The notes: generated by a model from the sequence alone, not told the origin. A DNA stretch of 41,614 nt from Thermodesulfobacteriota bacterium (GCA_040880385.1 JBBDIN010000048.1:1-41614); one strand, 5' to 3'; positions 308 to 26,652 are shown, counted from the stretch's first letter. Numbers and translations are program-made.

Positions 308-460
308 TAAGAGCACACTGTTATACATAGTACAACAACTGTATGTATTTCTTATTATTAGATAATATAAATCAAAAAAGTGATTTGGCAAGTAGTTTTT
401 TTATAAAACTGAAAAATTGTAAGTAAAAGCAAATCCGGCTTTTTATACTAATTGTAAGAT

Positions 461-547
461 AATTGTCATTAACATCACCTTAATTTAAATCTAATATCGC
501 ATTAAAATATTAAGGGATATCTTCTTTGTATACCCTATCAACTCCGT
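461..547. repeat. Left copy of long imperfect inverted repeat (IR-L)
   Basis: The reverse complement of 461-547 aligns with 26432-26518. There is an exact 18-mer (530-547 vs 26432-26449) and an exact 16-mer (479-494 vs 26485-26500). About 67 positions are identical over ~90 aligned columns. Confidence 0.9.
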
Positions 548-556
548 GCTTTTAGG

Positions 557-591
557 GGGCAACTCGATCTCAATCGGCTTGCCCTTTTTTT
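557..591 (+). terminator. Intrinsic terminator-like hairpin GGGCAA-N16-TTGCCC followed by T7
   Basis: 6-bp GC-rich stem (557-562 / 579-584) followed by TTTTTTT (585-591) on the plus strand, 9 nt after IR-L. Confidence 0.5.
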
Positions 592-657
592 ATTTAATAT
601 TTATCCTCAATGAAATTCTTGCTATTTTATGTTAGACCGTAAAAGGCAGATTTAGAT

Positions 658-2511
658 TTATTTCATGTCTATTGTGTCTGCTGTAATATTCAGAAATATA
701 GCTCTCAATTTATATGAACCTCTAAACTTAATTCTTATCCTATCAATACTTTTGCTTTTAACTATTCTGATTCTTCCTGGTTCTATTTCTTCATTATTTT
801 GGTATTTGTCCAGTTTTGTATGAATTTTTATCCATTCAATCATATTTTTGATTTCCTGCCTTAGCTGAAATCTTCGATGTATACGTTCTTGATCATCTTT
901 AGCAGATTTTAGAAATGAATATGCTTCTTTTATACTATCTTTCTGTTTGCTCAACTTTAGACGCTTTTCGGCTAAATTTTTGATTTCTTGTTCAAGTTTT
1001 TTATTTTTGGCTATTAACTTCTCTGAAGCGTCATGTTTCTCAGTAACTTTTTTTTCATATACTATTTTATTCTTTTCATCGTCTATACGACTAATTGTTT
1101 CTAACAAATTATCTATCTGAGAATCTAGATCACTCAATTTTAACATGTTTGCTGACATTTTATTTTCTTTTTCTTTTTTAAGTTTGGTAGTTGCATCCTC
1201 GTTTGGCAAAAATTTGTTAACATCCAGTTCTTCAAAGTTTTCAAAGAATATCTTCTCAAATTCGTTATAAGGTACGTGTCTAGCGTTACAAACCTTTAAT
1301 TCTGTATGGACTTCTATCTTTGGTATTTTATGTGTCTTTCGTGTTATATCACGAATCATCTTGGCACCTACTATTGCTTCAATTTGTTCAGGATCTTGTT
1401 CTATAGGAATTTGGACTTTATTTTTTCTCTTTGCACTATCACAAACAAGATATTGCCAAACGTCTTTGCCAGTATGAAGGTAGACCATTGAACTTCCACA
1501 TATTCCGCACTTAACAATATTTGTAAATAAGTTCTTGGCTTTATCTGTATTACCTCCTCCTGCATTGCCGGGGAATTTGCTGTTTTGTTCAATGATTTCT
1601 TGTACCCTATAAAATGTTCCTTCATCTATTATTTTCGGGTAGTAATTTTTTATAGGATCACCTACGGGTACTCGTTTTGATTTATAGACCTCTTCTCCTT
1701 CTTCTTTATTGGGTATTTCATGAGGTTGGAATTCGCCAATTACACTTCTGCTTCGAAGTATTTTATTTATGTATGCCTCACGCCAACCACCGGACTTATT
1801 ACGACCTTTAATAGGTGGTTTCCATACATTAGGCTCTAGGTTTAATTCTTTTTCGATTTTATAACTTCCTTTCCCTTCGAGTCTTTTCTTAAAAATTAAC
1901 TTTATTACGTCACATACTTCAGGTATCGGAACAAATTCTTCTTTCTTATCTGACCATTTCACCCATAGCGGACATCTTGTACTAAATCTCTTTATTTCAT
2001 TATTGCTTAACTTCCTCCTTTTCTCTTTTGTTGCTTCTCTCACTCGAATAGATTTCTTGCGAGATTCATCATGTGCAGCAGACATCAATATAATGCTGAT
2101 TAGAAGCTCTGTTGGATTTTTATCTATAATATCCTTATCGTATTGCCTTTTATCTTGTAATGTTACTATCTTGATTCCTTCTTTTATTAAGTTCAAAAAC
2201 GATGTTAGAGCGTCACTCACTTTTTCACGAGATAGCCGGTCAAGATGCTCTACAATCAAGACAGAACCTTTAGGTATCTCTCTTTTATCAACTAGTTCAA
2301 TGAATTTATTAAGTGCACCATCAATTCTATTAATGCCTTTATACCCTGATATACCTAAATCTTTGAACTTTTGACTTTCATCAAGTTTTAATCCAAGCTC
2401 CTTAGCAGCATATTCCTCCGCTTCCATCTCTTGGCGTCTGAGAGAATCCCCTTTCTCTTGCTCAGGAGTTGAAAAACGTATGTAACTGTATGCTTTTGGC
2501 TTGTTATCCAT
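658..2511 (-). CDS. Large serine recombinase (resolvase/invertase catalytic domain, recombinase domain, zinc ribbon, coiled coil)
   Basis: N-terminal AYSYIRFSTPEQEKGDSLRRQ carries the catalytic-serine motif (S14). Cys clusters CGICGSS...LVCDS...VCNARH fit a zinc ribbon. The C-terminal part is a long K/E-rich coiled coil. 617 aa is typical of the family. Confidence 0.9.
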   Translation of the reverse strand: MDNKPKAYSYIRFSTPEQEKGDSLRRQEMEAEEYAAKELGLKLDESQKFKDLGISGYKGINRIDGALNKFIELVDKREIPKGSVLIVEHLDRLSREKVSDALTSFLNLIKEGIKIVTLQDKRQYDKDIIDKNPTELLISIILMSAAHDESRKKSIRVREATKEKRRKLSNNEIKRFSTRCPLWVKWSDKKEEFVPIPEVCDVIKLIFKKRLEGKGSYKIEKELNLEPNVWKPPIKGRNKSGGWREAYINKILRSRSVIGEFQPHEIPNKEEGEEVYKSKRVPVGDPIKNYYPKIIDEGTFYRVQEIIEQNSKFPGNAGGGNTDKAKNLFTNIVKCGICGSSMVYLHTGKDVWQYLVCDSAKRKNKVQIPIEQDPEQIEAIVGAKMIRDITRKTHKIPKIEVHTELKVCNARHVPYNEFEKIFFENFEELDVNKFLPNEDATTKLKKEKENKMSANMLKLSDLDSQIDNLLETISRIDDEKNKIVYEKKVTEKHDASEKLIAKNKKLEQEIKNLAEKRLKLSKQKDSIKEAYSFLKSAKDDQERIHRRFQLRQEIKNMIEWIKIHTKLDKYQNNEEIEPGRIRIVKSKSIDRIRIKFRGSYKLRAIFLNITADTIDMK

Positions 2512-2719
2512 CGGTTTGAAGAGTTACCAGATAATAATATGTTTGTAATATTTATTTTAACCGTCGAATATTGTACGATCTCTTATAAATATATACAAAG
2601 GTATTTGTTTTATGTATCAACGCTTTAAACAACTATATTTTGACATATTGTACATTATTCAAGCTATTTATTCCTTTTTTAAGTTATCTAGAAATAAAGA
2701 TAAGAAAGAGAAAGAAAAA

Positions 2720-3412
2720 ATGACGAATTATCATGATGAGATTGATAATATTAAACTAATAAGAAATGGACTAATGCACCTAGAATGTGAATTGCTTCAA
2801 GATGATCCTAGCTGGCACAGAATAGCGAGAGAAGCACATCTAGTACTATACCGTTCTATGATAGAGGCTTTGAGAAGTACAGACAACATTGCGATTACGG
2901 GCAAGAAATCTAAAAATCGAGTGCATGTATATAAAATAGGTGTTAAACCATGGAAAAAGATTGAGAAGATTTCAGTTGATGGTTGTGAGAATGCATGGAA
3001 GTTTTCAATTCCAGAGTCTTTTGAACCAGAAAACGATACACATACAACTGAATCACTATCAGATGACCGGCTTATGGATGATTTTTTGGTACCATTTTAT
3101 GACGCGTTAGCCATGATACAAGCAGAAAATTTTATGGAGACATTGGTTCACAGTAAGAAAGTTGCTGTATCAGATGAAGATATGCAAAAACTTGAGTTGC
3201 TACACGAATCAGTAAGAAACCCATATGAACATTTCGTTCCATGTACGCGTTTAACCCCTAAAAGACTTCTTTGTTCAGTTGCGAAACTTTGTATATCTCT
3301 TTCTAGAGAGTTGCTATTTGAATCAGGTAATGTTCATTTTTATATTGAAACCGAAAAAGAAGACATTGCTAATTTTATCAATCAAATCAGTAGTAAGCTT
3401 GAATGTAATTAA
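2720..3412 (+). CDS. Hypothetical protein with two RNxxxH motifs (HEPN-like candidate)
   Basis: ORF 2612..3412. The ATG at 2720 is preceded by a purine-rich AAGAAAGAGAAAGAAAAA tract. Motifs are IRNGLMH (nt 2762-2779) and VRNPYEH (nt 3215-3232). The gene is divergent from the recombinase gene. Confidence 0.6.
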   Translation: MTNYHDEIDNIKLIRNGLMHLECELLQDDPSWHRIAREAHLVLYRSMIEALRSTDNIAITGKKSKNRVHVYKIGVKPWKKIEKISVDGCENAWKFSIPESFEPENDTHTTESLSDDRLMDDFLVPFYDALAMIQAENFMETLVHSKKVAVSDEDMQKLELLHESVRNPYEHFVPCTRLTPKRLLCSVAKLCISLSRELLFESGNVHFYIETEKEDIANFINQISSKLECN

Positions 3413-3486
3413 TAGAGTAGAACCACTCTTTAAATAACTAATGCTTCAGTCTACCTGTCTATATTGTTCTAATATCTTATTGGCAG

Positions 3487-3678
3487 TTACTTCCCCACAT
3501 TGATACTGGAGAGCTGACCGAGAACTCCAAAAACGCTCAGGAGCCACAAGATAACGGCAATGACCACGACGGCATTCAATATCGTCTTGATGGAACCCGC
3601 CATCGGGATGAAATTGTTGATGAGCCAGAGAAGAACACCAACTACGATAAGGACCACAACGACATGAATTAAAGGCAT
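3487..3678 (-). CDS. Small two-TM membrane protein (resembles the Thivi_2564-type small membrane protein family, from memory)
   Basis: A strong RBS (AAAAAGGAGGT) lies 6 nt before the ATG. The 63 aa product has two hydrophobic helices (VVVVLIVVGVLLWLI / VVVIAVILWLLSVFGVL). It looks GC-richer than its surroundings by eye. Confidence 0.7.
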   Translation of the reverse strand: MPLIHVVVVLIVVGVLLWLINNFIPMAGSIKTILNAVVVIAVILWLLSVFGVLGQLSSINVGK

Positions 3679-3976
3679 GATGTTACCTCCTTTTTAATTT
3701 GTTACGGGCGTCTCCTCTCATTTTGTTTCGTTAACTAAAAGCTATGATATAATACGCCCTCTTCCTAATCATTTTACACTCTTTTTGATGTTACCGCTAT
3801 ATGACTAACTATTCCTTATCAAATTTAAGCTCTCTTGCGCTCCCAATAATTCCAAAACCTTGCCTTACTTTTCCTCGACATTCTTTCTGTTTAACTCCTC
3901 TGGTAAACCGCTATCGCTTCCGCGTTTTATCATTCCTGCATGGCGGAGGGGGAAATCAGGTTCAGATTGAGAATCA

Positions 3977-4240
3977 TCAGAGTCGTATATAGCTTTTTAT
4001 CATATCCTCAAGCGAATCTGTAATTCGTTCCAGCTTTGTGCGAGCAAATCGATTTCCCAGATTTCTATGATATACATACCCGACCATAATATCTTGCGTG
4101 ATCTCACCATAGAATATCGTAATATGATTTGTTTCTTCACCTAACGATACAGTAATTGATTTTCTATGCTTTGGAGTCTGTCGCGGAGAAGAGGTATTAC
4201 TTCCAGCAGGTCTGCTCCGGCTCATAACCGGACCGATCAT
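3977..4240 (-). CDS. Doubtful 87-codon ORF; the C-terminal half is faintly RelE/ParE-like
   Basis: The N-terminus is low-complexity (SRSRPAGSNTSSPRQTPKHRK). The C-terminal ITIFYGEITQDIMVGYVYHRN resembles the strand-plus-HR core of RelE/ParE toxins. No clear RBS. Confidence 0.25.
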   Translation of the reverse strand: MIGPVMSRSRPAGSNTSSPRQTPKHRKSITVSLGEETNHITIFYGEITQDIMVGYVYHRNLGNRFARTKLERITDSLEDMIKSYIRL

Positions 4241-4467
4241 CGCTTTTTCCGCGGAATAACCGTCCCTAGACTATTCATATACAAGATTGTTTAATATTGT
4301 GTCAATTTTAGTTGAGAATATTTGCTCTATGCTGTCGCTCATTATTTATTCCCTTGTGTCTCCCCCGGTGGTCTCATTTAGAAACCGGCTCCCTTTATCC
4401 TCCGATCACTAAACTATTTATAGTTAACATATGCCATCCTCAGAGTAGAAAGCCGGGGCTAGAATCT

Positions 4468-4695
4468 TTAGTCCCGGGGATCATCGTGATTCTCAACGTA
4501 CTCGAATAAGTCCCCCACTTGCAAATTTAGAGTCTTACATAACTTCACCATGGTTGATTGATCGATTCCTTTCCAATTCTCATGGTAATACTTGTTTATC
4601 GTGTAAGTAGAAAGCCCACTGATCCTGGCAAGCTCAACTTGAGGTATCCGTCTCTCACCAAGGATTCTTGATAAATAGCACTTAATTTTACCCAT
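4468..4695 (-). CDS. XRE/Cro-type helix-turn-helix transcriptional regulator (HTH_26-like)
   Basis: RIPQVELARISGLSTYTINKYY is a classic helix-turn-helix, and the C-terminal LCKTLNLQVGDLFEY is typical of short XRE regulators. A hairpin CCGGGGCTA/TAGTCCCGG (4454-4478) overlaps the stop codon. Confidence 0.85.
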   Translation of the reverse strand: MGKIKCYLSRILGERRIPQVELARISGLSTYTINKYYHENWKGIDQSTMVKLCKTLNLQVGDLFEYVENHDDPRD

Positions 4696-4857
4696 AATCC
4701 ACTATCTCCTCTTTAAACTTAGCTATTTTAATACAAAATATATGTACATTAAATAGAAATGTCAAATAACGAGCAATATTTATTAGAAGTCCTATTGACA
4801 GAATATTTTATAGGTGCTAGTATATCTATTAAAGTACAATAAATTATGGAGACAGAT

Positions 4858-4965
4858 ATGACACTTATGGCTTGTATTATATTGGGTTTGGTGGCTGGTA
4901 TCATTGCCAGTAAGATATTCAACAGAACCGGTGAAGGATTAATGTTTGATATTCTTTTAGGATTG
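4858..4965 (+). pseudogene. 5' fragment of a GlsB/YeaQ/YmgE (transglycosylase-associated) stress membrane protein gene, fused in frame to the next gene
   Basis: MACIILGLVAGIIASKIFNRTGEGLMFDILLGL matches the first ~35 residues of this ~80 aa family, and similarity then stops. GGAGA lies 5 nt before the ATG at 4858. The end coordinate is approximate. Confidence 0.5.
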
Positions 4966-5040
4966 TCGGCGCAAGGAGTTCCAATGGAAAGTAAAGTAAC
5001 CAAGTGTTATGAGGTAAGAGAGGGTTTAACTAAATTCAAG

Positions 5041-5913
5041 ATGTTGAATCATATGGTGGTGGCGATTGTAATCAGCATGGTGTTGCTGGTGGGAACAAGC
5101 TTACCGTCCAACGCACAGCAGCAAGAAACTCAGCAAAAACAGGTCGAGCAGCAGCTTGATGAGGAACAGCAGGTTCAGCAGAAAGAAGCTCAGAAGCAGA
5201 TCAAGCAGGAAAAAAAGGCTGAACAAAGGCAGCAGAAACAGGCCGAGCAAAAGCAGGTCAAGCAACAAAAGGCTGAACAAAAGCAGCAAAGGGTAGAACA
5301 GCGACGTCTGTCACAGGAGCAACAGCAGAAGCTTATTAATCATCAGAAAGAGCTTCAGGCGCAGTATCGTAATGAACTGCAACAGCAGCAACGTCTCGAG
5401 GAACAGCGTATAGCACTGCTACAGAAACAAAAGCGTATGGCACAGTATCGTTTTCAGCAACAGTATTCAGAAGACATGCGTCAGCAGCAGAAACGTTTCC
5501 AGAATGAGCAGAACTACAATTACAATAATGATCCCTACTTCTACACGGCTCCGAATTATCGTTACTCTCGTAACGGCAGATACTACGAAACGAATCAATA
5601 CGGTGCAGATCTGCTCAAGCAGGCTGTAAATTACGGCTATGCGCATGGATCCCGCGCCGGACAGGCGGATCGGGAGGATGGCTGGGGCTACAACTATAAA
5701 GGCTCTTATGCTTATCAGGATGCAAACTACGGATATAATGGTATGTACATGGACCAGAACGAGTACAACCACTACTTCCGCGAAGGATTCAGGCGCGGCT
5801 ATGAAGATAGCTTCAATAGCCGCTATCAATATGGTAGCAACTCTGGAGGCAACTATTCTATTCTTGGGACCATTATGTCGCAGATCCTCAATTTCCAGTC
5901 GCTTGTCAATTGA
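5041..5913 (+). CDS. Secreted Q/E/K-rich coiled-coil protein with a Tyr/Gly/Asn-rich C-terminal domain
   Basis: Signal-peptide-like MLNHMVVAIVISMVLLVGTSLPSNAQ is followed by ~140 aa of QQKQ/EQK low complexity, then NYGY/GWGYNY/RRGYEDSF-type aromatic-Gly repeats. The start within ORF 4846..5913 is uncertain. Confidence 0.6.
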   Translation: MLNHMVVAIVISMVLLVGTSLPSNAQQQETQQKQVEQQLDEEQQVQQKEAQKQIKQEKKAEQRQQKQAEQKQVKQQKAEQKQQRVEQRRLSQEQQQKLINHQKELQAQYRNELQQQQRLEEQRIALLQKQKRMAQYRFQQQYSEDMRQQQKRFQNEQNYNYNNDPYFYTAPNYRYSRNGRYYETNQYGADLLKQAVNYGYAHGSRAGQADREDGWGYNYKGSYAYQDANYGYNGMYMDQNEYNHYFREGFRRGYEDSFNSRYQYGSNSGGNYSILGTIMSQILNFQSLVN

Positions 5914-6013
5914 AGTATAGGCACCGGGAATGTGGATAATTTGCCAGCTTTTGGCTTCTGAATATATTAGGAATAGTAGCGATAATAAGATAGATATTAT
6001 AGGAGGTAAGTCA

Positions 6014-6163
6014 ATGAGATCATTTAAAATATCTTGGAGGAGTCTTAGAGTATTATTGATGTTAGTGGGCATAACTTTTCTATTCAACCTCCCTGGTCTG
6101 GTGAGTTGTCATAGTTCTGTAGGTACAACTGCTAAAGGTGAATACAGTTGGATAAATAGTTAA
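6014..6163 (+). CDS. Small putative lipoprotein (49 aa)
   Basis: AGGAGG (6001-6006) lies 7 nt before the ATG at 6014. MRSFKISWRSLRVLLMLVGITFLFNLPGLVSC has a lipobox-like LVSC. Confidence 0.45.
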   Translation: MRSFKISWRSLRVLLMLVGITFLFNLPGLVSCHSSVGTTAKGEYSWINS

Positions 6164-6603: not shown

Positions 6604-6668
6604 GCCAAGAGATCTTATAGCAACACTGAATCTGATCCTGTAGCTCAATAAAACGGAGGTGATAAATA

Positions 6669-9864: not shown

Positions 9865-11261
9865 ATGAAATTTAAAGAAAGAATCATCAACATTTTAAAG
9901 GACCTTAAATCATTTTTGTGGTTTTTTCGTGCTCTTTGGTATAACGTCGGGTCAAGCTTCTGGTTCTTACCCGCTTTAATGGTTGCCTCTTCTATAGCTT
10001 TTTCCTTTATCATGATATACGTAGATGCCAATATTGTTAAAGTTAGCGGGATAGAATCTTTAGGCTGGATTTACGAAAACAAACCTGAAGGCGCACGTGC
10101 TCTTCTCTCAACTGTAGCAGGATCAATGATAACAGTGGCAGGTGTGGTTTTTTCAATAACAATTGTTGCATTAACCCTAGCCTCTACACAATATGGTCCA
10201 AGACTGCTTGGCAACTTTATGCGAGACAAGGGAAATCAAGTAGTACTTGGAACTTTCATTGCTACCTTCACTTACTGTTTATTGATATTGCGGACTATAA
10301 GAGGAGGGGAGGATAGCTCTTTTATTCCACATCTTTCTGTTACAATTGGGGTACTGTTTGCAATATTTAGTATCAGTGTTTTAATTTATTTTATTCACCA
10401 TGCTGCAACATCTATACAAGCTTCAAATGTAATATCTGGAGTTAGCAAGAATCTTAAACATACTATTGATTTAACATTCCCCGAGAGAATAGGTCAAGGA
10501 AAAACAGAACTCCCAGATTGGTGGAAAACCCCTAATGAATTACCCCTGATTTCGAAGATGATTTATATTCAGTATTGGCATCTGAAAGTGGTTATCTGCG
10601 TACCATCGATAATATCGGAATACTTGATATTGCAATAGATGAAGATCTTATTTTAAAAGTAGAAAACTATCCGGGAGACTTTATTGTAAAAGGCAGCCCG
10701 ATTGTTAGGATATGGCCTGCTAATAAAGTTGATACAGAAATCCAAAGTAAGATTAGAGGTACTTTATTAATTGGGAACCAACGTACAAGTGAGCAGGATA
10801 CAGAATTTGCGATAGATCAGTTAGTAGAGATTGCCGTTAGATCTCTTTCCCCGGGAATTAATGACCCTTTTACAGCTATTATGTGTATTGATCATCTTTC
10901 TGTAGCACTCAGCAAAGTGGGAGATAGAGTAATTCCTTCAGTCTTTCGATATGATAAAAACAACAAATTAAGAGTTATAGCCAAACCAAAGACTTTTGAT
11001 GATTTGATGAACTCTGCCTTTAACCAGATACGTCAATATGGAAGGACAAGTGTTTCTGTAACTATCCGTCTTCTTGAAAGCTTAATTGTCATTGCTTCCA
11101 ATACAGATAGAGATAGGGATAAGAAGTCGATAAGACAGCATGCGGAAATGATAAAGAGAGGTAGCGATGAAGCATTGCCAGAGGAACTGGACAGAAAAGA
11201 CGTTGATCAAAGATACATGCAGTTGATAGCTATATTAGATGGTAGAGGAGAGTCTATATAG
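9865..11261 (+). pseudogene. DUF2254-family membrane protein gene split by a frameshift near 10520-10545
   Basis: ORFs 9865..10638 and 10575..11261 overlap in different frames. The N-part has FWFLPALMVASS...STQYGPRLLGNFMRDKGNQVVLGTF. The C-part continues with SESGYLRTIDNIGILDIA...PGDFIVKGSPI. Together they give ~460 aa, the usual family length. The second frame is open from 10539. Confidence 0.75.
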
Positions 11262-12115: not shown

Positions 12116-13033
12116 ATGAAAAGTTTTTTAACGTCAAGGTATCACTTACATACTGTTGTGATTTTATTACTTGCTTTAAACTTCGTAGCTTTGACAATGG
12201 TGGGAGGTTGTAACAATAACAACGGTAGTAGTAAAAGACCTGAAAATGAGCCTAATAACAGTTTTGAAGATTGCACTTTGGTCAGTTCCAATGTAGGAAT
12301 ACGGGGCAGTATTGATCCAGAGGGAGACGAAGATTATTTCTGTTTTGATGTCGAAGCTGGAACGATGGTTTCGGCAGATCTTATGCCAAACGGTGACCTC
12401 AATCCGATCCTTGAGTTATTCGGACCGGGTCCCGGATTTCCACTATTGGATGCGGGATCAACTTTTGTCGAATCTATTGTTGGCGTAGCCGGTAGATACT
12501 ATGTAGTTGTGGGAGACATATCAGATAACGGTGGTTCAGATTATACATATATGTTATTTATAAGTTCTACTGGTCCGACACCTCCTCCAACGGTTTCACC
12601 AACGGCAAGCCCTACTCCGACACCAACAGCGCCACCTACGGGTATGCCGACCTTGCCTCCACCTACGGCAACACCAAGTCCAACTCCTACTCCAACTCCT
12701 ACTCCGACAGCTACACCTACACCTAGTCCAACTCCCGCGCCTATGATACATGATGTAAGTATGATTGATAGCGAATTTATGCCTGCGGATATTACCATAA
12801 CAGTTGGTGACACTGTAAGATGGACAAACAATGGATCATTGAATCACACTGCGCAAGATGATAATGATACTATATTTAATTCCAATGATGATTTCCCACT
12901 TCCATCTGGAATGACACCGGGTGATATGTTTGAATTTACATTCAATTCAGAAGCGGAAATCGACTATTTCTGTATTTTCCACGGTGGACCCGGAGGAATA
13001 GGAATGTCAGGAACAATAAAGGTTGAGCCATAA
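12116..13033 (+). CDS. Lipoprotein with a PPC-like (pre-peptidase C-terminal type) domain, a Pro/Thr linker and a C-terminal cupredoxin domain
   Basis: Lipobox MVGGC. EPNNSFEDCT...GSIDPEGDEDYFCFDV is PPC-like. The PT-rich linker is at nt 12569-12744. The cupredoxin end has GDTVRWTNNGSLNHT...DYFCIFHGGPGGIGMSGTIKVEP, giving His, Cys, His and Met ligands. Confidence 0.8.
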   Translation: MKSFLTSRYHLHTVVILLLALNFVALTMVGGCNNNNGSSKRPENEPNNSFEDCTLVSSNVGIRGSIDPEGDEDYFCFDVEAGTMVSADLMPNGDLNPILELFGPGPGFPLLDAGSTFVESIVGVAGRYYVVVGDISDNGGSDYTYMLFISSTGPTPPPTVSPTASPTPTPTAPPTGMPTLPPPTATPSPTPTPTPTPTATPTPSPTPAPMIHDVSMIDSEFMPADITITVGDTVRWTNNGSLNHTAQDDNDTIFNSNDDFPLPSGMTPGDMFEFTFNSEAEIDYFCIFHGGPGGIGMSGTIKVEP

Positions 13034-17978: not shown

Positions 17979-20042
17979 CTAATGAGCCAGCGGATCCGGT
18001 CTATACTGTACTTTGAATACGAAACCCTGCTCCAGCTCTGTGTGGAGTATAGGATCTATACCGTAATCGACCCACCATGATCTGCCTTTCCAACTGCTTC
18101 CGTCGTCAATCCTTCCGTCCTGTCCTCTATGGAAGAATCCAACCGGATAAGGTACATAGGTTCTAACAAACTCTTCTGTATCTGGAAGGAATGTGATGAT
18201 CGAATCGGATGCAGTTCCTGTGCAAACAACTGCATTTTCTCCGAGCCCTAAAATGTTGAACTGGTCGACCCATGTGTAATAGTGGTAATCAGTTCTTCTG
18301 TCCGGAATGCCTTTGTAGGTAGCGCCAGGGATCTCCCATAGAGTCCAGCCTTCTGCGCATTGTTCTCCAGTGCCGAAGGTCTGAGCGCATTGGCTGCGGT
18401 CAAATTTAGCAAGATGGGAACTTCCACCCAAGCAGGTCCATATGTTGCCTTCCGTATCAGAGTCCAAACCTCTCGGTCCGAAACCCGGAGCAGGTGGAGT
18501 GTAAACCTCAAACTTTTCAGATGCAGGATCAAATCTCATTATCCTGCCACGAGCTCCCGCTCCTAATTGGGCAGCCCAGATAGTCCCGTCGACGAAATTA
18601 GGAATGATTCCATAATTGAAGCCGGGTGCTGGAGTATCTGCTATGCCGTCGCCGTCTGAATCAACGACCATTCTCCACCATTCCTGCGCATCTCCTTCCG
18701 TCCCTTCAGGATCGTTCGGATCTAACATGTCAGGATATATCACGCCGAGATTAAAGAAATCTCCGCTTAGCCATAGGTCGCCGTTGAAATCAAACTGGAG
18801 ATGGTGTGTGCCGAAGCAAGTATCGATCAGCACGAATTCTTGGGTATTTGTATCGTAATAACCCATCTGACGGTGTCCACCAAAAATGCCAGGGTCTCTT
18901 TCGAGGCAGAAATCCGGCAAGTTCTCAATACCCTCAGGACGTATCTGTGTGGTTATCCACACTTTGCCCGTATCGTCTAGCATAGGGTTGTGTGGGTTAG
19001 CAGCATTCTGATATGCTCCAGGGTAGGCTGTCGTTCCGCCCTCAGCTGGGCAGCCTAAAGTCGCAAATCCCGGCTGGTCGCACCAAGGTACGTTAAAGCC
19101 GTTTCGTGTCGGCACCTTAATCCTTGTCGTAGCATGAGTATTTGGATTAAGTTTTAACAGGTAGTCATTTCCAATATCTACGCCCCAAATTGGCTCGTTT
19201 GGATACATGGTTGGGTCACGTTTGTCTGTGGCAACCTCATCATGTGCATATGTAAAAAGATCTCCCCATTCCCACATCGTTAAAACAAAATTCCTTTCCT
19301 TTCCAGATGGTCTAGGAGGGGTAGGGGGTACTTCACCAGCTGCTATCCTTGCACCCCAGTCGCCTAACATTTCAGCCAGATTTTCTCTGCCTATTCCATT
19401 GGCAGTTCCGTTCATAGTACCCGCTTTTTTCCACCCGAAATCAAATGCTGCAGCATTCGGAAGCCTGGTATCCGGAGTACCGACCTGATGGCAAAGCTGG
19501 CAACCGAGTTTTGTTCTGTCTATTAAGTGGTCGCGTGTCACAAGCGATTCAGCCCAGCCATTCCCTTCAGGTCCAGTACCAGGAAAATCGCTGTTTGGCG
19601 GGAGCTCTATGATCGAGGCCCAATAATTAGCTGGGAAAATAGCTGCAGCCGCCTGAGGCGTGGGAGCCTGAACTCCTTCTAAATCCACCTCGTCACCAGG
19701 TGAAGCCTGGACCGGGTCAGAATCTACCAGACCGTAACCGCGAACCCATACATCATATGTCGCATTGGGAAGATCTGGTAAGACATAGTTTCCGTTCGAA
19801 TCTGTTACGACTATCTTTATAAACCTGCCGGGTGCTCCGTCATTGGTCGAGACTCCAAAGCTCTCTGCAATAACCCAAACTCCAGCTTCAGTTGAGCCGT
19901 TGGTGGTAACATTTCCGCAGATGTCATCATTATCTCCGCATCTGGTAGTGCCACTGCCTCCTCCACTATTACTACATCCACCATAAATTAGAGGAAGCGT
20001 AAATATACAACAAAACATAATTAGAATAGTAATTACTCTCAT
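17979..20042 (-). CDS. Large lipoprotein: CarboxypepD_reg-like beta-sandwich, single CXXCH haem-c motif, possible beta-propeller-type C-terminal region
   Basis: AGGAGGTG lies 8 nt before the ATG at 20042, giving MRVITILIMFCCIFTLPLIYGGC (lipobox). VVTDSNGNYVLPDLPNATYDVWVRGYG is CarboxypepD_reg-like. CQLCH is encoded at nt 19488-19502. The W/G/D-rich C-terminal ~450 aa only suggests a propeller; I did not delineate repeats. Stops are a TAG-TAA tandem. Confidence 0.75.
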   Translation of the reverse strand: MRVITILIMFCCIFTLPLIYGGCSNSGGGSGTTRCGDNDDICGNVTTNGSTEAGVWVIAESFGVSTNDGAPGRFIKIVVTDSNGNYVLPDLPNATYDVWVRGYGLVDSDPVQASPGDEVDLEGVQAPTPQAAAAIFPANYWASIIELPPNSDFPGTGPEGNGWAESLVTRDHLIDRTKLGCQLCHQVGTPDTRLPNAAAFDFGWKKAGTMNGTANGIGRENLAEMLGDWGARIAAGEVPPTPPRPSGKERNFVLTMWEWGDLFTYAHDEVATDKRDPTMYPNEPIWGVDIGNDYLLKLNPNTHATTRIKVPTRNGFNVPWCDQPGFATLGCPAEGGTTAYPGAYQNAANPHNPMLDDTGKVWITTQIRPEGIENLPDFCLERDPGIFGGHRQMGYYDTNTQEFVLIDTCFGTHHLQFDFNGDLWLSGDFFNLGVIYPDMLDPNDPEGTEGDAQEWWRMVVDSDGDGIADTPAPGFNYGIIPNFVDGTIWAAQLGAGARGRIMRFDPASEKFEVYTPPAPGFGPRGLDSDTEGNIWTCLGGSSHLAKFDRSQCAQTFGTGEQCAEGWTLWEIPGATYKGIPDRRTDYHYYTWVDQFNILGLGENAVVCTGTASDSIITFLPDTEEFVRTYVPYPVGFFHRGQDGRIDDGSSWKGRSWWVDYGIDPILHTELEQGFVFKVQYRPDPLAH

Positions 20043-20357: not shown

Positions 20358-20999
20358 TTAAATAGCAGAAATATTAATTAAATGATTCCGAATTGAGTAA
20401 TGAATCAATTCAGCGTCATTTTTCGTATTCATTTTCTCTAGGATTCTGACTCTATAGGTCCTAATCGTCTGTTCGCTTAAATATAATTCCTCAGCTATTT
20501 GTTTTATTGATTTCCCTGTTGCAATTAGGCACATGACTTGATATTCACGATCGGAGAGTTTGTAATGTGCCGGTTTTTCTTCATCGGCGTAAATATCAAA
20601 CACCAACTTCTCGGCCAGTGACGGACTTACATATCTTCCACCTAAATGTATCTTCTTGACGGCTGAAACCAGATCATCAGGCATTGTATTTTTTGTGATA
20701 AATCCTGATGCGCCGGCTTTTAGTACCCTGAATGCTATCTGGTTCTCATCCAACACAGTTAAAATCAGTACAGGCAAATTGGATTTGAGCAATTTAATTT
20801 GCCTCAATACCTCAATACCATTCATATCTGGTAATTTAATATCCAGGATCAAAATATCCCATTTATTTTTGTTTATCTTTGATAATGCCTCTCTGGCATT
20901 TTCCGCTTCACCAAACTGGATATTTATCAGGCCCTCGGAAAGTATCTGCTTAACACCTTTTCTGATAACGGGATGATCATCCACAATAAGTACTTTCAA
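20358..20999 (-). CDS. Response regulator, NarL/FixJ family (REC plus LuxR-type HTH)
   Basis: MKVLIVDDHP...ILILDIKLPDMNG is the receiver domain. LSDREYQVMCLIATGKSIKQIAEELYLSEQTIRTYRVRILEKM is the LuxR-type HTH. Confidence 0.9.
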   Translation of the reverse strand: MKVLIVDDHPVIRKGVKQILSEGLINIQFGEAENAREALSKINKNKWDILILDIKLPDMNGIEVLRQIKLLKSNLPVLILTVLDENQIAFRVLKAGASGFITKNTMPDDLVSAVKKIHLGGRYVSPSLAEKLVFDIYADEEKPAHYKLSDREYQVMCLIATGKSIKQIAEELYLSEQTIRTYRVRILEKMNTKNDAELIHYSIRNHLINISAI

Positions 21000-23370
21000 T
21001 TTGGTTCTCCGTATAAGGGATGATAACTGTTACTGATGTTCCTTCATTAATATTGCTTTTTATAGTGAGTTCCCCGTTTAAAATATCTGTACGTTCCGTC
21101 ATCCCCAATAAACCTAGAGAATCCATACTCGTGATAATATCTTCCTTCATTCCTTTTCCATTGTCATTTACAATAAGTACGAGGTCATTGCAGTATGATT
21201 GAAGTGTCACCTTTACTTCTGTAGCCTCTGCATGACGTATTATATTTGTAATTGCCTCCTGAAATATACGGAACAGAGTAGTTTTTACTTTTGAGTCCAG
21301 AACATGTTCATTAATTGAAGAATAAAAGTCGATATCAATATTGGTTTGGGACTTGATGTTGACTATTTGCCACTTAATTGCGGCTTCTAGGCCAAGCTTG
21401 TCAAGAACCTCGGGTCTCAGTCTGGCGCAGATACGCTTTACTGTTTCAAATGCATTATTTATTAAAACTGTAAAATCGTCTAATTTGTTTACTATATCTG
21501 CGTGTTGCTTATCTTCAGGGAGTTCGTAACCTTGTGTAAGTTTATTAAAACTCTTTTTCAGCCATGAGACATCAATGGTCATACCGGTTAACATCTGGGC
21601 AAAATCATCGTGAATCTCACGTGCCACTTCTGTCCTTTCTTCTTCCCTATAAAACACCAGGTGTTCTGTAAGTTTGCGGAGACTTTCACGGGATTCTTTC
21701 AATTTTTTACTTTGGCTTATGTCTATAACTGTTCCTTCATAATAAAGAAAGTTTCCGTCTTTGTCATTTACAGCCCTTATGCTTTCAATGACATTTATGA
21801 CTGAGCCATCATTTTTTTGCCATATAGAATCAAGCTCGGATATCTTTGCATCCTTGTTAAGTAGTATTTTTTTTCCATTATACGGGATTTGGTTATCTAT
21901 GAAGTCATTATGCGTAGGAGATTTTGAAATCATTTCTTCAAAAGATGAAAAACCCAGTAGACTTATAAGTGTGGAATTTGCCATTAATATTTTTCCATTT
22001 TCGGATTTTCGGTAAATACCAGTAGGAACATTCTCATACAATTCCCTGTATTTCTTTTCGCTCTCTTTTAGGTCATCATATAATTTTGCCTTGGATATTG
22101 CTATCGACAGGTGGTCAGTGATAGAAGTCAGAAGTTTGACTTCATGTTGATCGAACTTATGGTATTTGTAGCTTGCAAAATAGATAACACCAATAACGGT
22201 TTTCTCACTTTTAATTGGAACCCCAAGCACTCCGTGATGTCCTAGTTGCTTTCCGGCAGCTCCTACATCCTTTCTGTTCTGTATATTTTCTACATTGAGA
22301 TGTTGGCCGTTATTAATAATTTTCCAAGTTATACCGATACCCTTTGGTATTCTGTATGCTTTGCTTATGTAGATTTGTGGAACATTACGTTGCGCTATCA
22401 GAACTGCTTCTTCACTTCTCGAGTCCAGCAGGTATAGAAAGGTCATATCAATATTTTCGAAAGTGGATATAATATCAAGAGCTATTTCATAAACTTCCTT
22501 TAGGTTAAGAGATTGGTGAACAGTTTTTACCACTCTGCATAAAATCTCCATATCCTTAACACGCTGCTCTAGACTACTGTCAAGTTTTCTTAACTCTTTG
22601 TGTTGCTCGAAAAGTTTACTTTTGAGCTCGGAATTGTCCGAAACATCTTTGAAATTCAAAATGATCTTTGTTTCTCCAGATGAAATTCTGTAAGGTTTTA
22701 TAGTACAATCCCTGAGCATCCAATCTCCTTTTTTGGTTTTGAATCTGAAAGAAAATTGTGCTGTAGAGTAGTGCCTGAGTGAGTGTTCAAATATTGACTT
22801 CACAATAAATAAATCTTCGCTATGAATATACTCCATAAAACAACCATCTATAATATCCGATGGCTCATATGTTATGTGACATTTGGAGTTAGAACTTACT
22901 GATAGGAACCGACAATCTTTGTCTAGTTCACAAACAACTTCATTTGTAATATCCAACTGGCTTGCAAGCTTATTTTCAAAATCTTTCAGCTCATTCTGGT
23001 AGGATTTGTATTGCGATATTCTCTGAGCTGTTCCAGCAAGAGCTATTGGCTCACCACTTTCATTTCTAATGCAAACTGAGTTTAGTAATATAGGAATCTG
23101 GGTGCCGTCTTTATGTATAATCTCTTTTTCATATTCTACGGCTCGGTCATTATTTAATATCAGGTTAACTACCTGTTCGTCTATAACATGGAATTCCGGC
23201 GGTGTAAGTTCTTGGTACCTTTTAGTGAATAATTCATCTCTACTATATCCAGTTAATTCGAGCCAAGCATCGTTAACCTCGAGCATATAGCCATCTAAGC
23301 CGGCTATGCCGACAGCAATTGCGGAAGATTCGTATATCTTTTTAAAAAATTTTCCAGTCAAATTTGCCAT
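20977..23370 (-). CDS. Sensor histidine kinase with PAS-PAS-GAF-PAS input and HisKA_3/HATPase_c transmitter
   Basis: H-box REIHDDFAQMLTG (HisKA_3 type). ATPase boxes FQEAITNIIRHA and VNDNGKGM. PAS-like and GAF-like segments lie upstream. The gene overlaps the regulator gene by 23 nt. Confidence 0.9.
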   Translation of the reverse strand: MANLTGKFFKKIYESSAIAVGIAGLDGYMLEVNDAWLELTGYSRDELFTKRYQELTPPEFHVIDEQVVNLILNNDRAVEYEKEIIHKDGTQIPILLNSVCIRNESGEPIALAGTAQRISQYKSYQNELKDFENKLASQLDITNEVVCELDKDCRFLSVSSNSKCHITYEPSDIIDGCFMEYIHSEDLFIVKSIFEHSLRHYSTAQFSFRFKTKKGDWMLRDCTIKPYRISSGETKIILNFKDVSDNSELKSKLFEQHKELRKLDSSLEQRVKDMEILCRVVKTVHQSLNLKEVYEIALDIISTFENIDMTFLYLLDSRSEEAVLIAQRNVPQIYISKAYRIPKGIGITWKIINNGQHLNVENIQNRKDVGAAGKQLGHHGVLGVPIKSEKTVIGVIYFASYKYHKFDQHEVKLLTSITDHLSIAISKAKLYDDLKESEKKYRELYENVPTGIYRKSENGKILMANSTLISLLGFSSFEEMISKSPTHNDFIDNQIPYNGKKILLNKDAKISELDSIWQKNDGSVINVIESIRAVNDKDGNFLYYEGTVIDISQSKKLKESRESLRKLTEHLVFYREEERTEVAREIHDDFAQMLTGMTIDVSWLKKSFNKLTQGYELPEDKQHADIVNKLDDFTVLINNAFETVKRICARLRPEVLDKLGLEAAIKWQIVNIKSQTNIDIDFYSSINEHVLDSKVKTTLFRIFQEAITNIIRHAEATEVKVTLQSYCNDLVLIVNDNGKGMKEDIITSMDSLGLLGMTERTDILNGELTIKSNINEGTSVTVIIPYTENQIESTYCG

Positions 23371-23790
23371 ATTTAAGAAGAATCCTTTAGCCTTAAAAAA
23401 TAAAACCCACCTTATTTATAATTATAATCGGTCTAGCATTGTAATTGCAACTAAAAATATCTTTTAATGACATTTTGTTTTCATAAATACAGCTAATGCA
23501 AACATCTATATTCTGACACCAATTGATGTAACCTATACTAGATATGGGATTATAAATCACATGTAGATGCTAGTCTCAGTCTAACATTCATGAATGCCTA
23601 TATTGTCCATATTCAGAATAAGAATATATACACTAATTTATTGTTCAGTTTTTTCTGTCTTAGAGAAGAATTTGCATATATCTGTTATTAGTGGCCATCT
23701 GCAATATTTGCACCTAATTAACCAACTTAATTATAATTCGTTATTAATGGGGAGCAGTATACAGTCAACCAAAGACATAAATTGATTAAT

Positions 23791-23845
23791 CATATAGATA
23801 GGAATAGAATAGAAGCCATAGATAGACTATGAAATATAGAATATT
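23791..23845. repeat. Cluster of ATAGA pentamers in an AT-rich non-coding region (iteron-like)
   Basis: CATATAGATAGGAATAGAATAGAAGCCATAGATAGACTATGAAATATAGAATATT contains at least five ATAGA copies in 55 nt. Confidence 0.35.
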
Positions 23846-24239
23846 CGGTGGTAAATCTTAACGGAAACCGTCGAATCCTGCGACTTTTTTAAAAATTGGG
23901 GTATTATATGTGATTTTACTAGAAAACTGTTCTAAGCAGGTGAAATATGGAATGCAATTCTTAATAGGAGGATAATTACAACAAAACATTAGATGGGTCA
24001 AATTATCGAGTAGAAGCGTTCTAAGAAAAGAAAATATTAGGTTGGTAAAAATAGTTGAACTGTAAAGTTCGACCATCGTTAACTTATAAATACTTAGAAC
24101 TTCTTATAAAAACTTTTTATTTATATATACTGAATTAATCTATGAGCAATACTGAAATAGTATTTATAGCAGATCTGAATCAATATATTTCAATACTTAA
24201 AATTTATGGTGGCAGTTCTTAATATTTACACTTTGTTTT

Positions 24240-25061
24240 TTATATTCTCGGCTTTAGATAAACTTTAAATAGAATTTTATTGTTATCAACTCTCTCTATC
24301 AATCTGTGATTTTCTAATTGTTCTAGTATTGGTTTTATATTGGTTGGAGTTATATCAACCAATCTGCACAAATCTACTAGAGTGCAGTTACAGATATCCC
24401 ATTTGCGATCAAGATAATTGCTTCCTTCTACTACTTCATACACATCCTTTGTGGCATAATCTAATTCTAAATCTTCTATCTCTATGTATAGCATGGCATT
24501 AAAGTGAGCGCTCATTCTCATTGATAAATATAATGCTTTTGCTCTTGGTTTTAGGTTTGCCCAGACACCACTATCAACTATGCACTTGTGGAAAGTGAAG
24601 TATTCACCTTCCCACTCTTCAATATAGTCTTTTCGAATAAAATTAACTGCATAAACATAAAAATGACGAGTACCTTGTGTCTGTTTATGTTTTTCTAAAA
24701 AAGGTTCGCCGATAAAAGATTTTTTTTCCAAATCCTTAATACCTTTTCTGACTGTGTTGACATCGATGCCAGCCATACTTGCTATATTTTTCTGAGATAT
24801 TTGAAACCACTTGTTCTGTTCAAAATTTGATTGAAGACATAGGACTGGATAGATAGCAATTGAAGGTAAAGACATACAGAAGTCTTCGTCAAACTTTGGG
24901 AAGAAAAAAAATCGATTTGTATTGATATCTGCTGATTTCGGAAATTCAAATTCTTTTGGCTTGGTGTATATTTGGTTAAAAAGAAATTTTTGATGTTCTA
25001 TTCTTTTCCTTTTACCTCTTTCAACATCGGCTTTTACTCTTTCTTTCCAATTAATTTTCAT
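24240..25061 (-). CDS. Rep-like protein with two RepA_N-type winged-helix segments
   Basis: FFFFPKFDEDFCMSLPSIAIYPVLCLQSN...WFQISQKNIASMAGIDVNTVRKGIKDLEKKSFI follows the RepA_N pattern (FxxxPK...L...A..lY..L...W...S...ia...g.s..ti.k.ik.Le...li). A second similar segment is FTFHKCIVDSGVWANLKPRAKALYLSM...LVDLCRLVDITPTNIKPILEQLENHRLI. Confidence 0.55.
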   Translation of the reverse strand: MKINWKERVKADVERGKRKRIEHQKFLFNQIYTKPKEFEFPKSADINTNRFFFFPKFDEDFCMSLPSIAIYPVLCLQSNFEQNKWFQISQKNIASMAGIDVNTVRKGIKDLEKKSFIGEPFLEKHKQTQGTRHFYVYAVNFIRKDYIEEWEGEYFTFHKCIVDSGVWANLKPRAKALYLSMRMSAHFNAMLYIEIEDLELDYATKDVYEVVEGSNYLDRKWDICNCTLVDLCRLVDITPTNIKPILEQLENHRLIERVDNNKILFKVYLKPRI

Positions 25062-25064
25062 ATT

Positions 25065-25163
25065 CTGCCCTCTTATTTTGATATCCTGCCCTAAATTTAT
25101 TTAACTGGGGACACGCGGGGCAGGTCGCTTCAGCAGTGTAGCTAGTCACTACCTAGTCCCCAG
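25065..25163 (-). promoter_or_regulatory. GC-rich structured leader upstream of the Rep-like gene (CTGCCC repeats plus an 8-bp stem)
   Basis: CTGCCCT occurs at 25065-25071 (overlapping the RBS on the minus strand) and at 25086-25092. The inverted copy GGGGCAGG is at 25117-25124. Stem CTGGGGAC (25105-25112) pairs with GTCCCCAG (25156-25163). This is a GC-rich patch in an AT-rich spacer. Confidence 0.4.
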
Positions 25164-25313
25164 ATTTTATTCTATAGAGTTCGCTGAAACAAAACTTTCA
25201 CTCACTAAGGAAAACGATTTTAATATCATTTACGCCTTGTTTTTTAGTTCAAATCACGTATTGACCATTAAAATCTCCTATATTGTCAAAAATGAAACTG
25301 TTACATTTATGTA

Positions 25314-26120
25314 TCAATTACATTTTTCGTCTAACTCTTTTATCATAGTGTTAATTTGTATTGTGAATCTCTCTAACATCTTAATGATCTCATAATCTTC
25401 CTCGTCTCTAATTAAAGCTTCTTCATCAGTGTATTTCTCAATCAAAGGATTAGATGGATTTATATTCGGCAGTTTCTCAATCTTTTTCAGTCTATCGCTT
25501 ATTAATTGATTCAGCCCTTTGAGTTCAATTATATACTTTTCCCGAATTGATATATCCTTTTGTTTTTTTAACAAATCTTGTACTACTTTGTCAGTAGTTT
25601 TGACTTCTCTGTTTCTAAATTGAATGGCTATTTTTACTAATTCTTTCTTTTTCACATCTACTTTCCCATTTACTCCTTCAAATAGGGCTTGACGTAAATC
25701 AACAGGAAAATCAGGACTGGTAATTACATATAAACAAGAAGGATTAAAATACTCAACCACCTCAGGATGTCCCATGCAGGCTCTATAAACTTTCATAAAG
25801 TTATGAGCTGTTTTTCTACAAAATTCGAAATTATTGTCAATCCAATTTTGGAACTCACCATGTCTGAGAATTGTTTTAAGCTCACATAATAACTTGCCTA
25901 TCTCGAAAATATGATATTTAAATGCTTTGCATCTAATGAATAATTCTTCCCGAATCGCATCCACATAGTTTTCAACAAACTCCCTTTTCTCAAAATCATC
26001 TTTATATAATTCTTGTCTCTCATCCCTTAATCTTTTCGCTTCGAAAATTAGTTGTAATCCCGGTTCTGTTGTTCTATAATCGAGTACTTTCTTATTTTTT
26101 GTTATTGGATATATGTACAT
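25314..26120 (-). CDS. DUF3102-domain protein (plasmid/phage-associated family)
   Basis: RHGEFQNWIDNNFEFCRKTAHNFMKVYR matches the DUF3102 core pattern (G.w..Wl..n...s.rtA..yM.v). The start overlaps the upstream stop as TAATG. Confidence 0.65.
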   Translation of the reverse strand: MYIYPITKNKKVLDYRTTEPGLQLIFEAKRLRDERQELYKDDFEKREFVENYVDAIREELFIRCKAFKYHIFEIGKLLCELKTILRHGEFQNWIDNNFEFCRKTAHNFMKVYRACMGHPEVVEYFNPSCLYVITSPDFPVDLRQALFEGVNGKVDVKKKELVKIAIQFRNREVKTTDKVVQDLLKKQKDISIREKYIIELKGLNQLISDRLKKIEKLPNINPSNPLIEKYTDEEALIRDEEDYEIIKMLERFTIQINTMIKELDEKCN

Positions 26121-26365
26121 TATGCAAGCCTCCTTATATTTAGTGCCTCTACTTGACGATACAATTTTCTTTTTGAATTCCTTGGAACCCCAAGGATTCT
26201 TCTTTTCTTAACTTCATTTGTAGCAAATTCCTCTACTTGTTGTTCGGAATAAGCTAGGTAACATAGTTTTTCTATGTGCCAATTACCTTGACGCCCTCTA
26301 ATTCTTTTAGGAAAAAACCTTCCTGTTACAACTCTATTCTGGATTTCTACTTCGAAAAATGGCAC
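26120..26365 (-). CDS. Small basic hypothetical protein, first gene of the plasmid-like operon
   Basis: AAGGAGG (26374-26380) lies 8 nt before the GTG at 26365. The track ORF starts at the GTG inside the RBS (26374). The gene is translationally coupled to the next gene. Confidence 0.5.
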   Translation of the reverse strand: MPFFEVEIQNRVVTGRFFPKRIRGRQGNWHIEKLCYLAYSEQQVEEFATNEVKKRRILGVPRNSKRKLYRQVEALNIRRLA

Positions 26366-26431
26366 GTGATACACCTCCTTGTATGATGTTATTATGCAAT
26401 AATGACAAGAAGTTGTACTATGTAATATGGT

Positions 26432-26518
26432 ACGGAGTTGATAGGGTATGGAGAAGATAATATTCCCTGTTTGTTAATCCTATGTTAGATTTAAATTAAG
26501 AAGAAGTTAACATCAATT
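26432..26518. repeat. Right copy of long imperfect inverted repeat (IR-R)
   Basis: See IR-L. The inner end lies 67 nt upstream of the small-ORF start at 26365, so this copy occupies promoter/leader position. Confidence 0.9.
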
Positions 26519-26652
26519 CTGTTTGTTCTTTACATTAATAAACCGTTTTTATCGTCATATATTATATTTCAGTCGCTTTAGGGTTGATAAGTTAGTCAAA
26601 TTACATCGATACTACGCCCCCATATCTAAGAGGAGCCTAAATTTCTTACAAA

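Follow-up and report, generated by a model that had tools for sequence, protein, structure and literature searches.

A large-serine-recombinase island that probably splits a small conserved host unit and carries an inverted spare copy of it

Large-serine-recombinase elements (e.g., phiC31, Bxb1, A118, SPbeta/SprA, TnpX, and CcrAB of staphylococcal cassette chromosome mec [SCCmec]) recombine attP with attB and, when a directionality factor is present, attL with attR; a 2-bp overlap together with a short dyad-symmetric attP is the signature of serine integrases such as phiC31, Bxb1, and A118. Such elements leave the target disrupted, as in comK, spsM, and groEL1, or sit at the extreme 3' end of a gene, as SCCmec does in rlmH, and are assumed either to disrupt the gene they enter or to insert outside genes, sharing just 2 bp with the target. 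We know of no large-serine-recombinase element with a complete second target copy beside the recombinase gene, and no integrase element was found described in the literature as carrying a full spare target. Here, a 41,614-nucleotide stretch of DNA from a Thermodesulfobacteriota bacterium (GCA_040880385.1, JBBDIN010000048.1:1-41614; hereafter the window) was examined, in which a 26-kb island with a large serine recombinase gene at one end has probably split a small host unit and carries an intact, inverted spare copy of that unit. An earlier note on this DNA had described the two copies as long inverted repeats that bracket the segment.

The locus is like the elements named above in its domain set, in the recombinase gene at one end, in a ~42-bp imperfect-dyad attP with a 2-bp crossover and no long direct junction repeat, and in the interruption of a host gene. 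Islands and phages of tyrosine integrases, inserted in tRNA or tmRNA genes or in dusA, are alike in using a short and highly conserved target (here probably a non-coding RNA gene) and in making good the damage. However, those elements rebuild the gene with its displaced 3' (or 5') part, which attP contains as a direct repeat (PMC6536676 gives an example in which a tRNA is reconstituted), whereas here identity at the crossover is limited to 2 bp, and the island brings the entire unit as a separate, inverted copy. Serine invertases (Hin/hix, Gin/gix, Cin, and Pin) likewise combine inverted repeats with an adjacent serine recombinase gene, but are small serine recombinases with ~26-bp sites that both lie in a resident segment; here, the integrase has 617 amino acids, one arm lies outside the inserted DNA, and empty sites exist. 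Accretion arrays (composite islands of the staphylococcal cassette chromosome, integrative and conjugative or cis-mobilizable elements, and tycheposons, which have been proposed to pick up adjacent host DNA when they excise imprecisely [10.1101/2020.12.28.424599]) resemble the remnants stacked by an intact or re-used target in L005, L009, and L074 (L-numbers denote loci from related genomes or contigs that were compared with the window). The repeated sites of accretion systems are direct repeats arising from integration, whereas the extra copy here is brought by the island and is inverted. The spare target copy is a new variation within the known large-serine-recombinase integrative elements.

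A genome scan with the metallo-β-lactamase (MBL)-fold protein encoded by the first gene of the right flank (26653–27411, plus strand; Pfam) yielded 62 loci, the closest of which are metagenome-assembled genomes of Dadabacteria/Thermodesulfobacteriota. Locus L004, with an MBL protein 98% identical to that of the window, is an empty site in which window positions 1–316 (96% identity) are joined gaplessly to 26432–29956 (97%). Because L004 positions 5624–5625 align both to window 315–316 and to 26432–26433, the crossover overlap is exactly 2 bp (AC), which is the sole sequence common to both junctions in the comparison of L004 with the window; there is no longer duplication. L006, L008, and L009 are also unoccupied, with window homology that stops at 316 and resumes at 26432, and right-flank homology begins exactly at 26432 in all of L003–L009 and in L020. 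The integrated island spans 317–26431 (26,115 bp between the AC cores, absent from L004, L006, L008, and L009), and the segment 317–460 belongs to it because this segment is shared with the related island L070 and absent from the empty sites. The guanine-plus-cytosine (GC) content of the island is 0.376, as compared to 0.388 in the flanks. These boundaries, and the assignment of the repeat arms to host or island given below, are practically certain, and 317–26431 is, by its junctions, recognizable as an insertion made by a large serine recombinase. The earlier note had suggested looking for an empty site joining ~440 to ~26546 and had offered, as one interpretation, a recombinase-mobilized island with the repeats as its ends; the mobilized island holds and empty sites exist, but they place the boundaries at 316/317 and 26431/26432 rather than at 441 and 26545, and the repeats are not the ends.

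The recombinase gene (658–2511, minus strand) encodes a 617-residue protein with Resolvase (PF00239, 1.2e-20), Recombinase (PF07508, 3.3e-11), and Zn_ribbon_recom (PF13408, 1.8e-7) domains, an N-terminal YIRFSTPEQ motif, and a charged, coiled-coil-like stretch at residues ~440–560. No match to it was obtained among PDB sequences at 1e-5, while homologues with 63–78% identity are found at island ends. By domain set, 2-bp crossover, and short dyad attachment sites, all present here, the island is classed as a large-serine-recombinase integrative element.

The attachment sites could be reconstructed from the two junctions. The host side of attL (272–314, minus strand) is contiguous with the left flank in L004 and constitutes the 3' end of the split host unit, with, on the minus strand, a T-run at 272–277, a hairpin at 277–308, and a B arm ending ...CTAAGAGC. 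It is followed by the crossover dinucleotide AC at 315–316, found again in attR at 26432–26433, and by the P' arm (317–336), a 7-nt spacer ACTGTTA and then the 13-mer TACATAGTACAAC. At the other end, the P arm of attR (26412–26431) consists of the 13-mer GTTGTACTATGTA and the 7-nt spacer ATATGGT, and the P' 13-mer is the perfect reverse complement of 26412–26424. The left junction thus reads ...CTAAGAGC-AC-ACTGTTA-TACATAGTACAAC... and the right junction ...GTTGTACTATGTA-ATATGGT-AC-GGAGTTGATAGGGTAT..., giving a 42-bp attP, GTTGTACTATGTA-ATATGGT-AC-ACTGTTA-TACATAGTACAAC, with a layout of 13+7+2+7+13 and perfect 13-nt inverted arms (in short form, ...GTTGTACTATGTAATATGGT AC ACTGTTATACATAGTACAAC...). 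The empty attB site is ...CTAAGAGC AC GGAGTTGATAGGGTAT..., in which 9 of 16 positions match between B (TTACCCCTCTAAGAGC) and the reverse complement of B' (ATACCCTATCAACTCC) when compared by hand. The inverted arms on the element side are the ~20-nt P and P' arms (324–336 and 26412–26424), of the usual size for large serine recombinases. A 12-mer, ACATAGTACAAC, was considered as a possible operator and rejected, as it is part of the P and P' arms. Near the left end, an outward promoter-like site (364–391, minus strand; TTGCCA-16-TATATT, 10 of 12 matches in a consensus scan) lies in a region conserved in L070; in the circular form of the island, it would read from 391 to 364 and onward across attP into the operon at the right end.

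Gapped local alignment of the two intergenic spacers paired 461–547 with 26518–26432, with three small indels and a score of 73, as compared to 21.8±2.8 (mean±sd; maximum 40) for 1000 dinucleotide-preserving shuffles of both spacers. A repeat search returned arms at 456–505/26474–26523 (50 nt, 78%) and an exact 18-mer at 530–547/26432–26449, and BLAST gave 77% identity over 88 columns. The alignment score and BLAST bear out the inverted repeat of the earlier note, 461–547 against the reverse complement of 26432–26518; the paired-coordinate sum of 26979, the 110 nt between the left arm and the recombinase stop, and the 67 nt from the right arm (measured to the likely GTG start at 26365) were also correct. 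The homology nevertheless exceeds this repeat. Outward, it reaches position ~403 in the left copy and ~26590 in the right, and inward it crosses the island boundary, with 548–594 matching host positions 272–314 on the opposite flank of the island, so that the left copy is a complete copy of the host sequence cut by the island. The noted left arm (461–547) comprises the promoter-and-body portion of this spare copy, as delimited by repeat search, alignment, and BLAST. The right arm (26432–26518) comprises the AC core (26432–26433), the B' arm GGAGTTGATAGGGTAT (26434–26449), and, beyond these, body and promoter sequence of the host unit; it lies upstream of the MBL-fold gene at the same position in L003–L009 and L020 (85–99% identical) and is present at nine island-free sites. 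Since it occurs in unoccupied sites with homology starting at 26432, the right arm is host DNA wholly outside the island, while the left arm lies 145–230 bp inside. The repeat did not recur in the rest of the window, at other places in the fetched loci, or in viral contigs, nor did a 20-mer containing the core match any viral contig. The long inverted repeat is, as these alignments are best read, the homology of the spare copy to the promoter and body half of the split host copy.

The attB site lies inside a small conserved unit that has a 170-amino-acid gene on one side and the MBL-hydrolase/purB cluster on the other. The 5' part of the split unit (26434–26510, minus strand) contains a candidate −35 hexamer, TTAACT (26510–26505), a 17-nt spacer, a −10 hexamer, TAACAT (26487–26482), and ~47 nt of body. 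Minus-strand hexamers of this kind (TTAAC(T/C/A)-like and TAACAT, 17 nt apart) occur in eight of nine related host sites, and hexamers and spacing are conserved across eight hosts and three island copies. The body of ~50 nt ends in ATACCCTATCAACTCCGTGCTCTTAA, a 26-mer shared without change by seven of the nine host sites, L008 and L020 each differing at one position. The host hairpin varies in sequence among genomes with its pairing kept, 6 of 12 pairs showing double compensatory changes (RNAalifold, 11 sequences). Only on the minus strand is the hairpin followed by a T-run (seen in all but L007), and the hairpin would therefore terminate a leftward transcript starting in this spacer. The predicted host RNA of 92 nt folds at −29.6 kcal/mol (z −4.7). 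On balance, the target is likely to be an undescribed small-RNA gene of ~90 nt on the minus strand, with the crossover just 5' of its terminator. Insertion of the island parts the promoter and body of the unit (right of attR) from the terminator (left of attL), and the promoter-like site of the split unit now points across attR into the right-end operon, about 50 nt separating the crossover from the AAGGAGG element of that operon; read-through into it may occur. The same spacer contains a separate promoter-like site nearer the MBL gene (26584–26613, TTGA(C/T)A-N17/18-TACTAC), apparently the gene's own. It recurs at equivalent positions in L004–L010, L016, and L041, is kept even in distant relatives without the attB unit, and its −35 element overlaps a minus-strand TTATCA-18-TATAAT site (26590–26561).

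The spare copy (403–598, plus strand) is ~190 bp long and aligns over its full length with the uninterrupted L004 empty site, from an A-run before the host hairpin to about 160 bp past the core. It contains candidate −35 (TTAACA, 469–474) and −10 (TAATAT, 492–497) hexamers from a promoter scan that are nearer consensus than those of the host, a block ATACCCTATCAACTCC GT GCTTTTAG (530–555) one base off the invariant host 26-mer and including an attB-like core at 546–547, a hairpin at 554–584, and a T-run at 585–591; its predicted fold has −21.9 kcal/mol (z −2.6). The copy lies between the recombinase gene and the left end of the island, convergent with the former and inverted relative to the host copy. 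Read in the orientation of the recombinase, the left end consists of the stop codon, 60 bp, AATAAAAAAA, the hairpin, CTAAAAGC-AC-GGAGTTGATAGGGTAT, and about 130 more bases. The earlier note had also raised the possibility of a duplicated promoter or operator region unrelated to recombination. The repeat does contain a conserved promoter-like unit, but it is not unrelated to recombination, since this unit encloses the attachment site.

Contigs encoding recombinase homologues were fetched for comparison of layout. In L070, L071, and L072/L073 (recombinases 74%, 78%, and 70% identical to that of the window), the recombinase gene is followed by a hairpin, TTAAGAGCAC-GGAGTT(G/A)ATAGGGTAT, the rest of a spare copy, and then the attachment junction. 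The junction lies 145–1270 bp beyond the spare copy and has the form GTTG(T/C)ACTATGTA, 7 nt, GT, GCTCTTA(A/G), and the host hairpin. This arrangement of 13-mer, 7 nt, GT, and GCTCTTA(A/G) is found in four hosts, those of the window, L070, L071, and L072, with unlike hairpins, and the same dinucleotide has therefore been used in four lineages. The island copies of the window, L070, and L071 form a group of their own, with 76–77% mutual identity as compared to 56–72% identity to host copies, and all three contain TTAACA-17-TAATAT. A metagenome scan with the recombinase returned only one partial relative (L066), without a site, and an exact look-up of the window recombinase matched no contig. 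A gene of ~210 amino acids of the Phage_integrase (tyrosine recombinase) family recurs in islands of this recombinase clade, directly upstream of the serine recombinase in L074 (9227–9871) and L075 (9223–9858) and a few kilobases upstream in L070 (1848–2483) and L001 (2885–3511); it is absent from the window island.

A sister clade (L001, L002, L069, and L074) encodes recombinases 63–66% identical to that of the window, at island ends beside a gene of the Diphthami_syn_2 family. The host copy of this gene adjoins the conserved host genes Zn_peptidase, SDF, and DUF3108 and ends ...PCGENGEFHTF+V* in four of four loci. A spare copy lies 6–20 bp after the recombinase gene, is 66–81% identical and inverted relative to the host copy, and runs 35 residues further, to the normal C terminus. 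The spare copies group together with 73–83% mutual identity; three of the four host copies group at 78–83%, with the L002 host copy as an outlier (62–65%). The junction arms of this clade (GAGTTACACTATATATTAA...) are similar to the window's P arm. The 10 kb fetched did not include the C-terminal remainder of the split gene. An assignment of the same AC core to this clade was dropped, since comparison of spare with host copies cannot place the crossover without an empty site. Judged from these layouts, two clades with different predicted targets have each retained an entire spare target in the interval from the recombinase gene to the attachment site.

The explanation we consider probable is that a serine-recombinase island split a small host unit and carries an intact inverted replacement copy. 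The recombinase (658–2511) would insert the island by attP × attB recombination at the AC dinucleotide, integration there splits the host unit, and the island supplies an intact paralogue. Since a serine integrase shares 2 bp with its target and cannot rebuild it via shared sequence, a replacement copy would be needed; whether the spare copy does replace the function lost on integration we rate as an even chance. With the copies inverted, recombination between them would invert the island rather than delete it. Several observations weigh against this explanation. The right island end, and hence the P arm, is visible in this window only. The L072 spare copy lacks the promoter block and that of L071 has a 1-nt deletion (one G) beside the core, while in the L067/L068 island (recombinase 68% identical), which sits in a TfoX_N gene, no obvious spare copy is present in the 235 bp between recombinase and arm, so the feature is not universal. 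Transcription of the target unit is deduced from sequence, with a promoter that is a consensus match only and a promoter block that is not kept in the more distant host L010, and neither host nor island copy had an Rfam match above threshold. Lastly, the account gives no route by which the spare copy was acquired.

An alternative is that the spare copy is a passive relic, host DNA acquired once by an ancestral island, for example through aberrant excision or recombination with an unoccupied chromosome, and carried along without function. The missing promoter block of L072, the deletion in the 26-mer of L071, and the mere 77% identity of the window copy to the host copy agree with decay of this kind. 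However, four islands have retained the copy while their recombinases diverged to 70–78%, the hexamers of three of the four are nearer consensus than those of the hosts, hairpin and T-run are intact in all via compensatory changes, and the sister clade independently keeps an intact open reading frame (ORF) of a different target at the same position. A passive relic is thus unlikely. Terminal inverted repeats at ~441 and ~26545, or a generic repeat of the repetitive extragenic palindromic or miniature inverted-repeat transposable element type, would account for arms that are long, significant, inverted, and bracket a recombinase gene and cargo. This is scarcely credible given a right arm found at the same place in nine genomes without the island, with homology starting at 26432, the island DNA at 317–460 outside the left arm, and the absence of other copies from the sequences searched; the 87-nt arms were likewise rejected as transposon terminal inverted repeats, the right arm being present in the nine unoccupied sites and the left lying 145 bp inside. 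The idea, also from the earlier note, that the whole 26 kb is a programmed invertible segment between the repeat arms fits the inverted repeat, the recombinase gene beside one arm, and a recombinase in L003 that is reversed relative to the MBL gene. It found no support and is highly improbable, as the empty sites reveal an insertion rather than a resident segment, the arms are 77% identical and differ as host and island copies do generally, so are not homogenized, and four independent, intact insertions share one orientation.

The exception in orientation, L003 (5890–12160), together with stacked remnants at other loci, bears on whether the copies recombine. In L003, the recombinase gene (product 70% identical) is oriented towards the MBL gene, the reverse of the direction in the four other insertions. 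Its hairpin is nearest to the island-borne hairpins of L070 (91%) and L072 (87%) and adjoins, without interruption, both the 3' flank of the recombinase gene and a fragment of the divergent neighboring gene, while from the core rightwards host-type sequence (TAACAT) runs into the MBL gene; the left side is rearranged, without the host hairpin and with an rve_3 fragment. This chimeric junction is as would be expected from recombination between a spare and a split host copy, with site-specific and homologous recombination indistinguishable because the switch falls within the invariant 26-mer. In L005 (2860–9790), there are an attL-like remnant, a decayed spare copy, and four ORFs, which by size and order alone look like a resistance-nodulation-division efflux operon, and then a second hairpin with an intact target; the two hairpins, on either side of the remnant and the ORFs, are near-identical (35 of 36 bases). 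L009 (2450–2520, 5930–6020, and 9640–9800) contains three hairpin-TAAGAGCAC copies; P'-like arms follow two of them, and the other is intact, with a ~50-bp piece of the left-flank gene in front of it. In L074 (11832–17200), there are three Diphthami_syn_2 copies: a full spare after the recombinase gene, a host-type copy truncated at EFHTF+V*, and a 98-residue host-type N-terminal fragment by the conserved flank. No recombinase remnants were found in L005 or L009, and these loci were rejected as inverted isomers because their left remnants are of the uninverted type and they lack such remnants. The arrays in L005, L009, and L074 suggest repeated use and regeneration of the target, a pattern not derivable from simple integration and excision. 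One extension of the preferred explanation, which we hold tentatively and regard as doubtful, is that these islands systematically carry, between recombinase gene and attP, an intact inverted copy of whichever locus they split (a small-RNA gene in one clade, a protein-coding gene in the other), and that this copy both complements the host and, having a usable attB, recombines with the split copy, flipping and locking the island and regenerating the target for a following island; this would explain both the L003 junction and the stacked remnants. It is very unlikely that the attB-like core of the spare copy is itself used as a recombination site, whether as a landing pad for further islands, as part of a ~230-bp inversion switch with attP in the excised circle, or as a partner of the host copy that flips or locks the island and restores an intact target. 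In keeping with that role, the core-containing 26-mer is identical or nearly so in island copies, the L003 recombinase and island-type hairpin are fused at the core to host-type body and MBL gene in reversed orientation, an intact target is preceded by attL-like remnants in L005 and L009, and L074 has an extra partial target copy. However, spare and split host copy correspond to an attB-like site and attR, a pair that large serine recombinases are not known to recombine; an attB with full activity at a distance of 230 bp would tend to eliminate attP from the circular form; of the four spare copies, three are altered in or beside the core region; no locus has an island inside a spare copy; L005 and L009 lack recombinase remnants; and RecA-type recombination could equally give the L003 junction.

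The right-end operon (24240–26374, minus strand) encodes an 84-amino-acid ORF, a DUF3102 protein, and an HTH_36 protein (Pfam, PHROGs), the last with a weak DnaD-like or replication-initiator match. The likely start of the 84-amino-acid ORF is the GTG at 26365, after AAGGAGG at 26380–26374. Cargo genes encode a GDSL lipase, a frameshifted DUF2254 protein, a plastocyanin-like protein, SCO1, a multicopper oxidase, a WG-repeat protein, and a PAS/GAF histidine kinase with a LuxR-type regulator. The DUF2254 gene (9865–11261) consists of two overlapping ORFs in different frames that cover profile positions 2–168 and 199–366, either a frameshift pseudogene or a sequencing error. Scans of the island proteins against Pfam, PHROGs, and NCBIfam revealed no conjugation genes (relaxase, type IV secretion system) and no virion or packaging genes, and no directionality factor was assigned by PHROGs or NCBIfam. 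GC content rises to as much as 0.49 at 18000–20000, over a 710-amino-acid ORF of unknown function, as compared to ~0.37 overall, which suggests a mosaic origin of the cargo. Short tandem coding repeats occur in a Pro/Thr-rich linker of the plastocyanin-like protein (12587–12743) and in a Gln/Lys/Glu-rich part of a 355-amino-acid ORF (5115–5511). In the right flank, the MBL gene is followed by purB, DsbA-like, RDD, and GshA genes, in an order common to L003–L010. Further on, the argininosuccinate-lyase gene (35166–36550, minus strand) contains an in-frame stop (...DIKAG*FPFSVE...), and the listed ORF lacks the first ~118 Lyase_1 positions.

If the proposed explanation is true, a complete spare copy would be a distinct way for mobile DNA to cut its cost to the host. 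Homology between the DNA beside a recombinase gene and the DNA past a junction may serve as a practical clue to attB sites. A conserved, unannotated small-RNA-like gene in Dadabacteria/Thermodesulfobacteriota is a further indication from the comparison, which also provides exact attP and attB sequences for an uncharacterized integrase, a candidate tool for genome engineering. For the biology of these islands, the attB-like site within the spare copy raises the questions of self-recombination and of island stacking.

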